In this document: positions 34,178-41,770 of the stretch, piece by piece
Layout: each line of letters opens with the position of its first letter
Numbering within the stretch: the first letter of the stretch is position 1
Source of the DNA: Escherichia coli O127:H6 str. E2348/69
Lineage (GTDB): Bacteria > Pseudomonadota > Gammaproteobacteria > Enterobacterales > Enterobacteriaceae
NCBI RefSeq assembly: GCF_000026545.1
Contig: NC_011601.1
Reading direction: 5' to 3' (one strand)
Length of the DNA stretch: 64,000 nt
Notes under the pieces: generated by a model
Told to the model about the DNA's origin: nothing
Database searches by the model: none
The model's input: only the letters and a program-made list of their open reading frames with translations
Translations under genes and position numbers: made by a program

Positions 34178-34882
34178 TTAATCCATCCGATGTTCCCCCT
34201 TTTCCATGGCGTCGCGATCAAAAAATCGCTGAATTTTTCCCTCGGACATCAATGCCGCTCGATCAGACATATGCGCGATGACATCGGCATCGTGACTGAC
34301 CAGCAGATATGTCATTTGGTGTTCCAGCTTAAGTTGATTCAACAAATTAAGGATTTCCGCTTGTACCGACATATCCAACGCCGAGGTGGGTTCATCCAGC
34401 AGAAGAAGTTGTGGTCGTAACAACAGGGCGCGAGCAATAACCACACGTTGCCGTTGACCACCGGAAAGCTGGTGTGGGTAGCGACGAGCGGCGTCGAAAG
34501 GCAAGCCAACCTGTTCCAGTGCAGTCTGGACGCGTTTTTCTATTTCTCTTTCGCCACGAATTTTGAGTGGTTCAGCCAGCGTTCGCCACAGAGTATGATT
34601 GGGATGCAACGAGGCATAGGGATCCTGAAACACCATTTGCACATTGCGGCGGAGATCGCCCTGAAAACGCATTCCTGGTTTGATGGTGTGCCCAAACAGT
34701 GACACCTGACCGTGCCAGTCGCGCTGTAATCCAGCAATTACGCGCAAAATCGTGGATTTTCCGCAGCCTGATTCGCCAATTAAACTAAATGTCTCTCCGG
34801 CATTAACCGAAAAACTGGCGGCAGAAACTGCGGTTTTCTCAGCAAAAGTCACCTGTAAGTGATTAATTTCAACAATCGTCAT
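34178..34882 (-). CDS. ABC transporter ATP-binding protein (DppF/OppF-like), accessory operon
   Basis: 234 aa; Walker A GESGCGKST, signature LSGGQRQR, Walker B LLLLDEPTSALD. Confidence 0.85.
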   Translation of the reverse strand: MTIVEINHLQVTFAEKTAVSAASFSVNAGETFSLIGESGCGKSTILRVIAGLQRDWHGQVSLFGHTIKPGMRFQGDLRRNVQMVFQDPYASLHPNHTLWRTLAEPLKIRGEREIEKRVQTALEQVGLPFDAARRYPHQLSGGQRQRVVIARALLLRPQLLLLDEPTSALDMSVQAEILNLLNQLKLEHQMTYLLVSHDADVIAHMSDRAALMSEGKIQRFFDRDAMEKGEHRMD

Positions 34883-35705
34883 GGTATTTCTCCGGCGTCA
34901 TTGCCGTCCTGTCCAGCGTCGGCAGCATCTGCCCGTAAGTTTGTGCATTTGGGCGGCAAGTCCACAGTGTGCGCGTGTAAGGATGCGTTGCTGTAGGTAG
35001 CGCAGCAGCGTGCATTTCATCCACCTTATTTCCCTGATACATCACCAGCACCCGATGGCAAAATTGGGCAACTAATGGCAGGTCGTGACTGATCAGCAAC
35101 ATTGCCATCTGACGTTGTTCACACTGGGTAACCAGCAGTTCCAGAATCTGATTACGCAGGCGCACATCCAGTGCTGATGTTGGCTCATCGGCAATCAATA
35201 CCCGGGGATCGTTGATGAGCGCAATTGCAATCATCACTCGCTGCCCCATGCCGCCAGAAAGTTCACGAGGATAGCTTTGCAGTACTCGCGTATTGAGGCC
35301 GACAGCCTGAATTGCGGTGTTTATTTTCTCTTCTTTCTCGCGGCGGTTCAGACGTTGATGGAGCGTAAGCGCCTCTTCCAGTTGCGCTTTTACTGTCTTT
35401 ACTGGATTAAGCGCGTAACGCGGATCTTGCAATACCATCGCGATATCGTTACCGCGCAACTGTTGCCATCCACGCGCGTTAAGGGTGAGTGCATCACGCC
35501 CCAGAATGTTAAGTGTGTCCGCGGTTACTACACCCGGTTTACGCACCAGCCCCATCAGGGCGCGGGCGGTCATGGACTTACCTGAACCCGACTCACCGAC
35601 CAGCGCCAGACGTTCATTGCCTAATGTAAAACTGACATTGTTGACGACCCGGGACTCCGGATAATCGACGCAGAGATTGTTGATACTAAGACGTGAGTCA
35701 GTCAT
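34869..35705 (-). CDS. ABC transporter ATP-binding protein (DppD/OppD-like), accessory operon
   Basis: About 278 aa from ATG 35705 (MTDSRLSINNL); Walker A GESGSGKS, signature LSGGMGQR; track start 35765 would overlap the upstream permease. Confidence 0.8.
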   Translation of the reverse strand: MTDSRLSINNLCVDYPESRVVNNVSFTLGNERLALVGESGSGKSMTARALMGLVRKPGVVTADTLNILGRDALTLNARGWQQLRGNDIAMVLQDPRYALNPVKTVKAQLEEALTLHQRLNRREKEEKINTAIQAVGLNTRVLQSYPRELSGGMGQRVMIAIALINDPRVLIADEPTSALDVRLRNQILELLVTQCEQRQMAMLLISHDLPLVAQFCHRVLVMYQGNKVDEMHAAALPTATHPYTRTLWTCRPNAQTYGQMLPTLDRTAMTPEKYHDDC

Positions 35706-36531
35706 GTTGAGGCTCCAGAACATCGCGCAAGCCATCACCCAGCAGATTAAAGGCCAGACTGGCAATTAAGATAATTGCGCCGGGAGCGGCGGCAATCCAC
35801 CATTGATCAAAAATGACCTGCATACCGTCGGCGATCATGGCTCCCCATTCCGCCATTGGCGGGCGAGCACCAAGCCCAAGAAAACCCAGGCCAGCAGCCG
35901 CCAGAATGATACCCGCTAAATCCAGCGCCAGACGGACAATGGCAGATGGCAGGCACAATGGCAAAATATGACCAGCCAGCAGACGCCTGCCGCGGATGCC
36001 CATCATTTCTGCGGCGGCAAGATAATCACTGTGTCGCAGACGTTGGATCTCACTCCGTGCCTGACGCGCATAAGCAGGCCAGGTGGTTAATGCCAGCGCC
36101 AGTGCGCCGTTAACCAGCCCCGGCCCCAGCATGGCAACAAAAGCAAAAGCCAGAATTAAACGCGGCATTGACATTACTACGTCAGTAAAACGCATCAGCA
36201 CGCGTTCCAGCCAGCCGCCGTAGTACCCGGCTAAAATGCCAATCAGCAGACCGACCGGGAGTGTAATGATTGTCACCAATGCCACCAGCCCCAGTGCCGG
36301 GCGGCTGCCGTAGATTAAACGTGAAAGTAGGTCTCGCCCGTAACTGTCAGTGCCGAGCCAGTGCTGACGACTCGGTGCTTGTAACCGCGCCGCCGCATCC
36401 TGCCAGTTAGGATCGTGAGGTGCCAGCCACGGCGCGAAGAGCGCAATTAGCATCAATAACAGGATAATTATCAACCCGCAAAACGCGGCGGGTGAATGGC
36501 GTAAACGGCGTAAAAAGAGAAACATCGGCAT
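35698..36531 (-). CDS. ABC transporter permease (DppC/OppC-like)
   Basis: 277 aa; six predicted TM helices; ends 2 nt after the next gene's start codon. Confidence 0.85.
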   Translation of the reverse strand: MPMFLFLRRLRHSPAAFCGLIIILLLMLIALFAPWLAPHDPNWQDAAARLQAPSRQHWLGTDSYGRDLLSRLIYGSRPALGLVALVTIITLPVGLLIGILAGYYGGWLERVLMRFTDVVMSMPRLILAFAFVAMLGPGLVNGALALALTTWPAYARQARSEIQRLRHSDYLAAAEMMGIRGRRLLAGHILPLCLPSAIVRLALDLAGIILAAAGLGFLGLGARPPMAEWGAMIADGMQVIFDQWWIAAAPGAIILIASLAFNLLGDGLRDVLEPQHD

Positions 36532-37580
36532 CAGCGTAACCTCGGATCGGTCAGCCGGACCAGCAGGTCGGTTAAGTTATTTATCAACACAAAGCAGACG
36601 CCAATCAGCAGCGTTCCTCCCATGATTGCTGTGGTATCACCCGCGAAGAGCGCTGTAGTGAGGTAGCGCCCAATACCTGGCCATGAAAAGACGGTTTCTG
36701 TCAGTACCGCGCCTTCCAGCATTGATGTATAGGCGAGGGCGATAACGGTGAGTAAGGTGCCGCGAATGTTGGGTAAAACATGACGTAGCAAAATTGTCAT
36801 CTCGCTGGCCCCTTTGGCGCGCGCCAGCAGAATATATTCTTTATTCATTTCGCCAAGACAGACGGAACGAGTCAGGCGCGTAATACTGGCGAGCGAGAAG
36901 TACGCCAGTAATAAAACCGGAAGTATCAAATGGTTGATTGCATTGGTAAATGCCTCGCGATCGCCAGAAAGCCACGTATCAATCAGCGCAAATCCGCTGC
37001 GGGGTTCTATGGTGAATTGATAAATATCATCCAGCCTGCCCGGCCCGGCACTCCATTGCAGTCTGGCGTAGAACAGCGCCAGCATCAGCAGACCAAGCCA
37101 AAAAACAGGGACGGAATTTCCCAGTAGAGTTAATGTTCGCACGGTGAAATCCAGCGGAGAACCGACATAACGGGCGCAAAGTACACCCGCAATGACGCCG
37201 ACAACAGCACCGACAATAAGCGCCAACGTTGCCAGTTCAATGGTCGCCGGGAATGCTGATAGCAAGTCCTGGAGTACCGGTTGCCCGGTGGAGCTGGCGA
37301 TGCCCAGATCGCCGTGTGCCAGATTCATCAGGTAATGCCAGAACTGGACGGCTAACGGTTGATCCAATCCTAACTGGTGGCGTACCTGATCATAGGTGGA
37401 CTGGCTGGCGTGATCGCCAACGATTTGTAGTACGCGATCGACCGGTGAGAGAGCCGAAAGCGCAAAGGTAATCAGCAGCAGGCCGAGTAGCGTCAGAGCA
37501 ACGGTAAACAGCCCTTGCAACAGCGCGAGCAGAGGGCGTTTGCCTCGCCATCTCGCGCGAGTGGAAAAAACGACAGACAT
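36531..37580 (-). CDS. ABC transporter permease (DppB/OppB-like)
   Basis: About 349 aa from ATG 37580 (GGAAAG RBS); in-frame ATG at 37673 would add 31 aa and lacks an RBS; start uncertain. Confidence 0.75.
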   Translation of the reverse strand: MSVVFSTRARWRGKRPLLALLQGLFTVALTLLGLLLITFALSALSPVDRVLQIVGDHASQSTYDQVRHQLGLDQPLAVQFWHYLMNLAHGDLGIASSTGQPVLQDLLSAFPATIELATLALIVGAVVGVIAGVLCARYVGSPLDFTVRTLTLLGNSVPVFWLGLLMLALFYARLQWSAGPGRLDDIYQFTIEPRSGFALIDTWLSGDREAFTNAINHLILPVLLLAYFSLASITRLTRSVCLGEMNKEYILLARAKGASEMTILLRHVLPNIRGTLLTVIALAYTSMLEGAVLTETVFSWPGIGRYLTTALFAGDTTAIMGGTLLIGVCFVLINNLTDLLVRLTDPRLR

Positions 37581-37679
37581 GATCTTTCCATACAGTGATA
37601 AATCAGCGGCTGGCCTGCAATACAGGCCAGCCCTGGTACCGCGCCCGGTAATATGGCTGGACGCGAGTTGCATACAGGG

Positions 37680-39248
37680 TTATTTGGTTACCTGATCAAA
37701 CCAGACCATATCGGCATTCAACCCTTGTTGATACCCCTGCACATTATCACGCATGACAATTTGCGTTTTGCCTTGATCAATAAAGACATACGGGGAACTA
37801 CGTTGTAGTTCTTGTTGCATTTTCTTATACAAATCAAGACGTTTAGCGCTATCAGGTTCAGCGATGGCCGCCAGCGTTTCTTTGTTCAGTTCCGGGATTT
37901 TCCAGCCGTTTAACCCGGCAACGGTGCTGGATTTGCCATCGTTATAGGCGAAAGAGCTGGCGTTGGAATGTGCGTCAAAATAATCAGGCAACCACATACG
38001 AATGGCCCCCTGATGCTGGTGGGCGCGAACGCGAGAGTAGACCTGACTCCCTGCGGCTGGCAGCAAATCAACTTTTACACCGCCCTGAGCAAAGCTGGCC
38101 TGAATTGACTGCGCGATGGTAATAAATGGCGGTTTATTTTCGACATCAAGCGTGAAGTGCGGGTCTTTGATTCCGGCTTTAGCGAGGATCTCTTTTGCTT
38201 TGGCTGGATTAAAGGTAAACGGTGTTTCTTCCAGTGCTCCAGGAAAGCCCACGGGCAGGAAACTTTGATGGGTAAAATATTGTCCTTTTAAGAGATTTTT
38301 GGTGATGCCGTCGTAATCGACCAACCAGCGAGCGGCCTCCCAGAACGCAGGATTACTCATCAGCGGGTTATCCTTGTTACCGGTATTGAAGGCCAGGTAG
38401 TTCTGTTCGGCGGAGGCAATGCTCATCACTTTTACGCCAGGTTTACCCTGTAATGCATCGATTTGATCGGCTCCCAGATCACGAGCCATATCAGCATCAC
38501 CTTGTTGGATCAGCAGGCGACGCGTTGCCGGATCGGGAACATTTTTGATGATGACGTTTTTCAGTTTCGGGGCGCCGGTTGGTGAGCTGGCGTTGGCTTC
38601 CATCACGATGGCCTGATGCGGTTGGTAAGTACGCATTTTAAACGCGCCGCTGCCAGCGGAATGCATCTTCAGCCATTCATTACCAAAGTCGTTATTTTTG
38701 GCGTTTGGCGCAACCAGCTTCTCGTCAACAATTGAGGCGATTGGTGTGGAGAGAATATTCAGTGCCAGCGCCGGGCTGACGTCGGCACTCCATTGCACCT
38801 GGACGGTATGGTCATCGATTTTCTTCAACTGGCTGGCGATATTTTCCGGCTGCCATCCCAGCACATTGAGAATAAACGCACCGGATTTATTCAGTGTGAC
38901 AGCCCGGACATAAGAGTAAATCACATCTTCCGGGCGTACCGGATTACCAGAGGCAAATTTCGCATCGCTTTTCAGTTTTATGGTTAGCGTTTTGGCTGCT
39001 GGGTCAGCCTGCCAACTTTCCGCCAGAATCGGAGTGATTTTCGTCGGATCATTACGGTCCGGTTGTACTACGCGTTGATACAGACTTGGTACAGTCTGAA
39101 TACTTGAGAGTTCATTAGCTTCTGCCGGGTCCAGACTCACAATATCATCCAGTCCCTGGGCTACAACCAACGTATTAGGCGGTGTAGCGGCAACGGTTGT
39201 GGCGGAAATTGTGCTTAAAACCAGTAAAGGTAATAGTTTTTTAATCAT
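37680..39248 (-). CDS. Periplasmic substrate-binding protein, family 5 (peptide/nickel/opine type)
   Basis: 522 aa; signal peptide MIKKLLPLLVLSTISATTVAA; size and composition typical of DppA/OppA-like proteins; clearly not NikA-like at the N-terminus. Confidence 0.8.
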   Translation of the reverse strand: MIKKLLPLLVLSTISATTVAATPPNTLVVAQGLDDIVSLDPAEANELSSIQTVPSLYQRVVQPDRNDPTKITPILAESWQADPAAKTLTIKLKSDAKFASGNPVRPEDVIYSYVRAVTLNKSGAFILNVLGWQPENIASQLKKIDDHTVQVQWSADVSPALALNILSTPIASIVDEKLVAPNAKNNDFGNEWLKMHSAGSGAFKMRTYQPHQAIVMEANASSPTGAPKLKNVIIKNVPDPATRRLLIQQGDADMARDLGADQIDALQGKPGVKVMSIASAEQNYLAFNTGNKDNPLMSNPAFWEAARWLVDYDGITKNLLKGQYFTHQSFLPVGFPGALEETPFTFNPAKAKEILAKAGIKDPHFTLDVENKPPFITIAQSIQASFAQGGVKVDLLPAAGSQVYSRVRAHQHQGAIRMWLPDYFDAHSNASSFAYNDGKSSTVAGLNGWKIPELNKETLAAIAEPDSAKRLDLYKKMQQELQRSSPYVFIDQGKTQIVMRDNVQGYQQGLNADMVWFDQVTK

Positions 39249-39533
39249 ATGCTTCCCAATCCCTAAAATTACTTTGAGGTTATTAATATGCTATCAGACG
39301 GGGGTTCGCTGCATTAATCGCGCCAGAATATCCCGTTAATAGAACGAGTTAAACGGTCGATGATTTCTCACCTTACCGAAATTTTGTTTATCAAATGTAA
39401 AGTATTATTACGTTAGGCCGCGATGAGAATTGAGTAAAGATAATTCTCATTTGCAATCGTGACAGGAATAGAAGAACAACCGAGAAGACGTCGCTAATAA
39501 CCAGAATGGGCTGGTTTGACTGCGCAGGTATGT

Positions 39534-39569
39534 ATAAAAAAATCCGGAAACAGAGAGTCGTTTCCGGAT
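39534..39569 (-). terminator. Rho-independent terminator of fdhF
   Basis: Hairpin ATCCGGAAAC-AGAGAGTC-GTTTCCGGAT followed on the minus strand by a U-run. Confidence 0.65.
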
Positions 39570-39622
39570 TGATACAAAGGCGTTGGGTAATATCGCCGCT
39601 TTTAACGTGAGTTTACGCGGTA

Positions 39623-41770
39623 TTACGCCAGTGCCGCTTCGCGCAGGCGAGTTTTCAACTTGTTGTACTCGTCAATCACGTACTGCTCGGCGGCGCGCTG
39701 ATCGGCGATCGGCTCGACGCGCACGGCGCAGTATTTGTATTCCGGCGTTTTCGTAATCGGGCTTAAGTTTTCGGTAACCAGCTCGTTACAGGCACCAATC
39801 CACCACTGGTAGGTCATGTAAATCGCCCCTTTGTTCGGACGATCGCTGACCTGCGCACGGGTGATAATTTTGCCTTTACGCGAGTGCACCCAAACCAATG
39901 CCTCATCTTCAATACCCAGACGTTTGGCGTCTTCGGTATTGATTTGTGCGTAGCCAGGTTCATCAGCCAGCGCCGCCAGTGCCGCACAGTTACCGGTCAT
40001 CGAACGGCAAGAGTAGTGACCAACTTCACGCACCGTTGACAGTACCATCGGGTACTCGTCGGTGAGTTTGTCGATTGGCGCGACCCAGTCGCAGGTGAAG
40101 AACTGCGCCAGACCGTTCGGGGTATCAAACTTCTCTTTAAACAGATAAGAAGTCCCCTGATCGGCATCTGAAGTATCCCGGCAAGGCCACTGAATGAAGC
40201 CCAGTTCGCCCATTTTTTCGTAAGTCGCACCGTAGAAATCCGGGCACAGATGACGCAACTCATCCCAGATCTCCTGGGTGTTGTTGTAGTGCATCGGATA
40301 ACCCATACGGGTGGCGATTTCACTGATAATCTGCCAGTCCGTTTTCAGATCCCATTTCGGTTCAACCGCTTTGAAGAAACGCTGGAAGCCACGGTCAGCC
40401 GCAGTAAACACGCCTTCATGCTCGCCCCACGACGTTGACGGTAAAATAACATCCGCCGCCGACGCGGTTTTGGTCATAAAGATGTCCTGAACGATGACCA
40501 GTTCCAGATCTTCAAAGGCTTTACGTACTGCCGACAGCTCCGCGTCAGTTTGCAGCGGATCTTCGCCCATAATGTACGCGGCACGCACTTCGCCATGCGC
40601 TGCGCGGTGCGGCAGCTCGCTGATGCGATAGCCGGTATGAGCAGGCAGGCTTTCCACGCCCCAGGCTTTGGCGAATTTCTCGCGGTTAGCCGGATCTTTC
40701 ACGTACTGGTATCCCGGATACGTATCCGGCAGCGCGCCCATATCGCAGGCACCCTGCACGTTGTTCTGACCACGAACCGGGTTTACACCCGCATGCGGCT
40801 TACCGAGGTTACCAGTCAGCATCGCGAGGCTGGTCAGAGAACGCACGGTTTCCACGCCCTGGTAGAACTGGGTTACACCCATGCCCCACAGGATGGCGGC
40901 GCTTTTCGCCTGGGCATACATCCGCGCCGCCTGACGAATCTCACTGGCGCTGACGCCGGTGATATCTTCAACCGACTCCGGCGTGTAGCCTTCAACGATT
41001 TTACGATACTCTTCAAAGCCTTCTGTACGGGAAGCGACGAAAGCTTTGTCGTACAGGTTTTCTTCAATAATGACATGGCCCATCGCATTCAACAGCGCGA
41101 TGTTCGAGCCGTTTTTCAGTGCAATGTGCATGTCAGCAATGCGCGCGGTTTCAATTTTGCGCGGATCGCAGACGATAATTTTCGCCCCGTTACGTTTAGC
41201 GTTAATTACGTGATTCGCCACGATTGGGTGGGAATCCGCCGGGTTGTACCCGAAAACGAACACTAAATCGGTATTATCAATTTCGTTAATAGCATTGCTC
41301 ATTGCGCCATTACCGACCGATTGGTGCAGACCTGCAACCGATGGGCCGTGTCAGACACGAGCGCAGCAGTCAACGTTATTGGTACCAATAACGGCGCGCG
41401 CAAATTTTTGCATTACATAGTTGGTTTCGTTACCCGTACCACGCGAGGAGCCGGTCGTCTGGATGGCATCCGGACCGTACTTCTCTTTGATGGCGCTCAG
41501 GCGCTCGGCAACGTAATTCAGTGCCTCATCCCAGGAAACAGGTTCGAGTTTGCCGCCACGCTGGCGACGGATCATGGGGGTTTTCAGGCGCGGGGTCAGG
41601 ATCTGGGTATCGTTAATGAAATCCCAGCCATAATAACCCTTCAGACACAGGGTACCCTGGTTGGTTTTCCCCTGCGCTGCCTCCGCCCGGACGATTTTGC
41701 CGTTATCGACGACCAGGTTGATTTTGCAACCTGATGCGCAATAGGGGCAAACCGTGACGACTTTTTTCAT
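39623..41770 (-). CDS. fdhF: Formate dehydrogenase H (FdhF), selenocysteine-containing molybdoenzyme
   Basis: 715 codons with in-frame TGA at 41351-41353 (codon 140, selenocysteine); the two track ORFs 41351-41770 and 39623-41302 are one gene; N-terminal Fe-S cysteines CPYCASGC. Confidence 0.95.
41305..41350 (-). other. SECIS mRNA hairpin directing selenocysteine insertion at the fdhF UGA
   Basis: Minus-strand sequence immediately 3' of the UGA reads CACGGCCCATCGGTTGCAGGTCTGCACCAATCGGTCGG, a stem-loop matching the fdhF SECIS as I remember it. Confidence 0.8.

Follow-up and report, generated by a model that had tools for sequence, protein, structure and literature searches.

A perfect palindrome across the predicted promoter of an accessory ABC importer operon is a plausible candidate operator in Escherichia

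The accessory ABC importer operon found between yjcO and fdhF in Escherichia coli is preceded by a perfect palindrome that straddles the -35 element of its predicted sigma-70 promoter and is invariant among the Escherichia alleles compared. From this position and conservation we infer an operator function, and there is about an even chance that it serves as the binding site of a repressor whose gene lies elsewhere in the genome. The candidate is plausible but ordinary: it belongs to a well-known kind of element, and current concepts are not challenged by it. The DNA analyzed was a 64,000-nucleotide stretch of the chromosome of E. coli O127:H6 strain E2348/69, referred to here as the window; all coordinates are positions in it unless another sequence is named (Table 1).

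Table 1. Coordinates of the palindrome, the predicted promoter, and surrounding features in the window
Feature	Position	Strand	Remarks
Palindrome ATGAGAATT-N10-AATTCTCAT	39423..39450		Arms at -47..-39 and -28..-20 relative to the predicted start site; center at ~-33.5
Second, imperfect dyad CAAATGTAAAGTATTATTAC / GTAAAGATAATTCTCATTTG	39392-39411 and 39434-39453 (arms)		15/20 complementary; arms 22 nt apart
Invariant 66-nt block	39392..39457		Palindrome, -35, spacer, -10, and ~12 nt of transcript
Predicted -35 hexamer TTTACT	39433..39438	-	In the palindrome loop; aligns with the ACTTTA.G block, ≥85% conserved in 13 non-Escherichia orthologs
Predicted -10 hexamer TAACGT	39410..39415	-	17 nt downstream of -35; predicted start site at ~39403
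Putative Escherichia-specific leader, ~120 nt	39275..39402	-	Between -10 and the ribosome-binding site; not present in other genera (alignment)
Sigma-54-like element TGGCGCG-ATTA-ATGCA (TGGCGCGATTAATGCA)	39310..39325	-	In the leader; would put the palindrome center at ~-136
Five-gene ABC importer	34178..39248	-	Family-5 binding protein (37680-39248), two permeases, two ATPases
fdhF intrinsic terminator, segment-borne	39541..39570	-	Isolates the ABC promoter from fdhF transcription; another terminator occupies this place in K-12
Accessory segment	34129..39615 (boundaries approximate)		Takes the place of 28 nt in the K-12 yjcO-fdhF spacer

The palindrome reads ATGAGAATT-GAGTAAAGAT-AATTCTCAT, a 28-bp inverted repeat with 9-bp arms free of mismatches and a 10-nt spacer. 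The initial annotation had described it in these terms and had placed it about 175 bp from the start codon of the binding-protein gene, and the sequence agrees on both points, its near edge lying 175 bp upstream of the ATG at position 39248 (minus strand). Perfect inverted repeats of at least 9 bp with a loop of no more than 20 nt number 21 in the window, compared with 4.6 ± 2.2 in shuffled sequences, and many of the 21 are terminators. Within the 288-bp promoter region, one or more such repeats would arise with a probability of 0.027, and shuffling gives a probability of 0.0062 (~0.006) for a perfect 9-bp dyad inside the 66-nt conserved block that surrounds this one. The full pattern, with up to three mismatches allowed, has a single occurrence in the window, where 0.01 would be expected. 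Chance statistics alone make the palindrome unusual only to a moderate degree.

The operon is carried on a segment of ~5.5 kb between yjcO and fdhF on the E2348/69 chromosome. It had been called accessory, and rightly so: K-12 lacks the segment, and about a fifth of complete E. coli genomes (1043 of 5426) have it. Carriers include E2348/69, Nissle 1917, IHE3034, LF82, NC101, and ST131 isolates, and E. albertii has the segment at the same chromosomal position. An fdhF terminator, the promoter region, and a 3' terminator all come with the segment, but a regulator gene does not. The five ABC genes are the only genes between the flanking yjcO and fdhF, which confirms the earlier statement that no regulator is adjacent, and no dedicated regulator adjoins the operon at any of the loci examined in E. 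coli and other genera. The first gene of the operon encodes a 522-amino-acid family-5 substrate-binding protein of a Dpp/Nik-type importer. This protein is a distant relative of DppA, NikA, and GsiB and is no closer to NikA than to DppA; its best solved relatives are of the DppA type (E value, ~1e-26), with NikA at 1e-13. The substrate could not be inferred from these relatives, and a literature search with the gene pair, the protein accession, and the motif returned nothing relevant to the locus.

The promoter was located through orthologous operons whose binding proteins share 81 to 87% identity with that of E. coli (Enterobacter, Raoultella, Klebsiella, Yokenella, Kosakonia, and others). 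Three conserved islands lie upstream of 13 non-Escherichia Enterobacterales orthologs: TTAT.C-N7-GCATA; 17 nt further on, ACTTTA.G; and, after a variable 17-nt spacer, CCTA...TAGC. Within the last of these, the hexamer is TAACGT, TAATTT, or TACCTT, and its invariant T1, A2, and T6 form the signature expected of a -10 element. The signature common to the 13 orthologs, TTTAC(G/T)-N17-TAnnnT, is kept by Escherichia as TTTACT-N17-TAACGT, and an 11-mer, GGCCTAACGTA, is also shared by Escherichia and the other genera, whereas all else upstream has changed. The palindrome had been assigned to a region that must hold the operon promoter, and the comparison supports this, in that the palindrome overlaps the -35/-10 signature of the 13 orthologs and straddles a predicted -35 recognized by cross-genus conservation. 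The start site is likewise a prediction, from a promoter that a simple consensus scan did not report: the putative hexamers match the consensus at four of six (-35) and three of six (-10) positions. Such weak hexamers fit a regulator-dependent promoter, and arms that flank the predicted -35, with the hexamer in the loop, would place the palindrome in a repressor-type position.

Conservation within Escherichia was assessed with an alignment of eight alleles, from five E. coli genomes, two metagenomic E. coli contigs, and E. albertii. Variation occurs in 63 of the 382 columns, and the palindrome is invariant. The 66-nt block is the longest invariant run in the alignment, a length reached in none of 20000 permutations. 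Among 1044 E. coli records, 1033 have the block unchanged, in comparison with 5 and 365 for the flanking 66-mers, and 1039 have an identical 50-nt segment that contains the palindrome. Intergenic positions that differ between E. coli and E. albertii number 55 of 382 (14%), and 25% of the four-fold degenerate sites in the adjacent gene differ; at this neutral rate, the probability that the 18 arm bases would all be unchanged is 0.0055. Changes in the most divergent E. coli allele (strain PU-1) fall just outside the arms, and the promoter spacer is invariant in Escherichia while freely variable among other genera. These comparisons indicate that the palindrome is under purifying selection in Escherichia. 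The absence of any variation in the block leaves selection on the symmetry indistinguishable from selection on the promoter or on other sites within it. The outer arms of the imperfect dyad, CAAATG and CATTTG, coincide with the ends of the same invariant block, and this dyad may mark a third half-site, ATGTAAAGT, at ~+1 to +9.

Conservation of the motif in orthologous loci is divided: E. coli and E. albertii have it in invariant form, and the 13 loci from other Enterobacterales lack it. These other genera carry a different element, TTATGC-N7-GCATAA, which ends ~17 nt upstream of the -35, is centered ~26 nt upstream of it, near -62, and is absent from Escherichia. Since the palindrome is missing and a different box is present in the other genera, the Escherichia site appears to be lineage specific. 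A T-N11-A form and a position near -62 are typical of LysR-type activator sites, and the box of the other genera looks like one (loci L008 to L019 and L022, of Enterobacter, Raoultella, Klebsiella, Yokenella, and Kosakonia); it lies ~60 to 80 nt upstream of the predicted start, with no adjacent LysR gene. Any likeness to LysR-type boxes (T-N11-A, e.g., ATAC-N7-GTAT) belongs to this element and not to the Escherichia palindrome, which differs in sequence, is longer, and is centered on the -35 rather than at ~-62. In protein searches, the Escherichia cluster stood apart from relatives at ≤87% identity; two matches at 93%, considered as intermediate lineages, turned out to be E. coli contigs that carry this same promoter. 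The upstream regions of more distant orthologs (Serratia, Proteus, and Yersinia) are unrelated.

On the preferred reading, transcription would be driven by the weak sigma-70 promoter TTTACT-N17-TAACGT, inherited with the operon, around which the sequence in Escherichia would have become a 9-10-9 dyad with one arm on either side of the -35. A repressor attached to both arms as a dimer or tetramer would occupy -47 to -20 and so block access of RNA polymerase, and a signal, presumably tied to the transported substrate, would release it. Operators of TetR-type, LacI-type, and ribbon-helix-helix repressors that lie over the -35 or the spacer are alike in dyad symmetry, single copy, and co-conservation with the promoter, and the palindrome's predicted position, on the core promoter, would also be like theirs. 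The palindrome differs from this class in its wide half-sites, with arm centers 19 bp apart and the -35 between them, and in having no adjacent regulator gene. The proposal that any such operator is served by a factor encoded elsewhere gains from the position of the site and its conservation in Escherichia, and it loses from the absence of the motif in other genera and from a search that found neither a factor nor a regulon. More tentatively, Escherichia may have acquired the operon without a regulator, lost the LysR-type box, and evolved the 9-10-9 operator around the inherited -35, with a repressor encoded elsewhere, possibly in the core genome. The contrast between the boxes of Escherichia and of other genera is a small testable case of the rewiring of an acquired operon; were this scenario true, it would illustrate cleanly how acquired genes come under new regulation, and the site could serve as bait for de-orphaning an uncharacterized E. 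coli transcription factor. The conserved candidate operator and the predicted promoter together offer a handle on the regulator and the inducing signal of the operon.

Candidate binding proteins were sought with ~55 transcription factor consensus sequences, matches to which are leads only, and none of them matched the dyad. The best match to the Fur box was 12/19, to GATAATGATAATCATTATC at 39436-39454 (0.15 expected in the region), which is below the level of ~13/19; a Fur box would call for that level or for three GATAAT-like hexamers, and Fur was set aside. The E. coli NikR operator at nikA is GTATGA-N16-TCATAC, and the palindrome resembles it in its 28-bp length, its outer geometry (ATGAGA-N16-TCTCAT), its place at the promoter of a Nik/Dpp-family importer, and half-sites about two helical turns apart. 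Unlike the NikR operator, its in-register half-sites, ATGAGA and TCTCAT, match at only 3/6 positions each, and the importer's binding protein is as distant from NikA as from DppA; the NikR pattern finds its best match in the region (8/12) at another site, and NikR was rejected. A direct repeat, TGTTTA-N5-TGTAAA (39385-39401), lies just downstream of the predicted start site and matches ArcA at 12/15 and PhoP at 10/12 positions; its first repeat is not conserved in E. albertii, and neither factor was retained.

Further copies of the palindrome were not found in the window (≤3 mismatches), in any of the non-Escherichia loci retrieved, or in the 5426 E. coli genomes, the last at BLAST sensitivity, which requires ~20 identical bases and misses diverged operators. 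A repetitive element of the REP, BIME, or ERIC type was rejected, as the sequence occurs at one place per genome in 1043 genomes and in none of the rest. Among viral contigs, the arms with spacers of 8 to 12 nt gave 19 matches in ~8 unrelated families, none with a 10-nt spacer. GC-rich prophage contigs (L035, 5537-5563; L039, L042, L043, and L044) contain a 27-bp palindrome, ATGAGAATTTTTCnGAAAAATTCTCAT, with the same 9-bp arms and a 9-nt spacer. It lies between divergent genes beside a CI/LexA-type repressor gene, in a CI-type immunity region, and is probably an unrelated phage operator. In metagenomes, exact arms with a loop constraint that excluded the present locus gave 33 unrelated matches, which is about the chance level, and none appeared enterobacterial.

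The main competitor of the operator reading, with perhaps half its probability, is that the dyad as such is without function. The block would then be kept as a core promoter with overlapping sites for other factors, such as those of nucleoid proteins silencing AT-rich acquired DNA, and its symmetry would be coincidental. The base composition of the block (32% G+C, in a promoter region of ~40%) is typical of H-NS-bound acquired DNA, and the block offers no variation with which to test the symmetry. The lack of a second copy or a cognate factor in the window, the E. coli genomes, and the consensus scan points the same way, and ~5 perfect 9-bp dyads are expected by chance per 64 kb. Against coincidence, a perfect dyad within this particular 66-nt block is improbable at the level given above, and this one is centered on the -35. 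In addition, spacer positions occupied by the downstream arm are invariant in Escherichia and free elsewhere, for which contacts with RNA polymerase alone are insufficient.

A less probable alternative, which we regard as unlikely, is that the palindrome is an upstream activating sequence through which an enhancer-binding protein drives a sigma-54-like promoter, TGGCGCG-N4-ATGCA, with a start at ~39298. GG and GC are correctly spaced in the element, which departs from TGGCACG-N4-TTGCW at two positions, and its E. albertii counterpart, TGGCGCAACAAATGCA, keeps TGGCGC, ATGCA, and the GG/GC spacing with an altered spacer between them. Enhancer sites at sigma-54 promoters typically lie at about -136, so that the dyad would be at a usual distance from the GG-N10-GC element. 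The gene immediately upstream, fdhF, is itself a sigma-54 gene. Matches of equal quality are not enriched, however (16 expected in the window, 10 observed), and the resemblance to a sigma-54 promoter is weak. No gene for an enhancer-binding protein was found in the segment or its flanks, no IHF-like site was seen between the dyad and the element, and the dyad is unlike the activator sites compared with it: patterns for NtrC, NifA, GlrR, and PrpR did not fit it. Nor would a sigma-54 promoter explain the sigma-70 signature retained within the dyad.

The leader that contains this element is a further difference between Escherichia and the other genera, in which ~45 nt lead to the ribosome-binding site. 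A riboswitch or other structured leader was rejected, as there was no Rfam family match and no stable fold. The predicted fold is not unusual (z = +0.66), and an Rfam scan of 39100-39750 at permissive E values gave chance-level hits only (best E values, 1.2 to 1.8, far below gathering scores). No other copies of the ~120-nt leader occur in E. coli genomes.

Slightly less probable again is that the palindrome is an activating transcription factor site, for example, a response regulator box abutting the -35; TGAGAATTATCTTT loosely resembles the RcsB-type box TaAGaatatTCctA. On the minus strand, a match to the RcsAB box (9/14, with 7/8 in a loose core) occupies 39436-39449, where it adjoins the -35 on its upstream side and extends into it. 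Weak promoter hexamers would suit an activator, as would the upstream activator box that other genera appear to use. Against this, the match is a weak one, 0.04 to 0.2 being expected in the region for one motif among the ~55 tried; the second arm, in the spacer, is left unexplained, and activators do not usually have a dyad centered at -33.5.

It is very improbable that the palindrome acts in fdhF readthrough transcripts as an RNA hairpin, be it a terminator, an attenuator, or a processing site: a 9-bp stem could form (-9.3 kcal/mol; z = -1.9), but it is AT rich rather than G+C rich, lacks a U tract, was not called as a terminator by the scan, has no Rfam match, lies 90 nt downstream of a strong fdhF terminator, and is outside the operon's own transcript if the predicted start site is right. 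A 19-codon open reading frame starting from an ATG in an arm (minus strand) was likewise discarded, having no Shine-Dalgarno sequence and a stop that is not conserved in E. albertii.

Several minor observations concern the segment and its surroundings. The segment exchanges the K-12 fdhF terminator, a GCCTCC...GGAGGC hairpin, for AATCCGGAAAC...GTTTCCGGATT (39536-39622 compared with L002, 1327-1419) and is not a simple insertion; no direct repeats were found at its junctions in this comparison. The only "plasmid" copy is a chromosomal fragment ridden with frameshifts. fdhF (39623-41770, minus strand) appears as two open reading frames of 559 and 139 amino acids split by an in-frame stop, which we take to be the expected selenocysteine UGA of formate dehydrogenase H and not the mark of a pseudogene.

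The neighbors of the orthologous operons vary. Those in Enterobacter are a divergent GNAT acetyltransferase gene and bet genes; in Serratia and Yersinia they are argI and pyrBI or nrdD, and in Proteus, the opp operon. A GNAT acetyltransferase gene is divergent from the ABC operon in most non-Escherichia genera (L008, 7086-7817, with equivalents in L009, L010, L012, L013, L015, L019, and L022) and is not part of the Escherichia segment; it may be a clue to the substrate, e.g., an acetylated peptide-like compound. In Serratia (L027, 7001-8569), argI and pyrBI flank a lone orthologous binding-protein gene, which lacks the accompanying permease and ATPase genes. The first permease open reading frame of E2348/69 (36531-37673) can be read as 380 amino acids; the RefSeq annotation gives 349 amino acids (36531-37580), with a gap of ~100 nt after the binding-protein gene.
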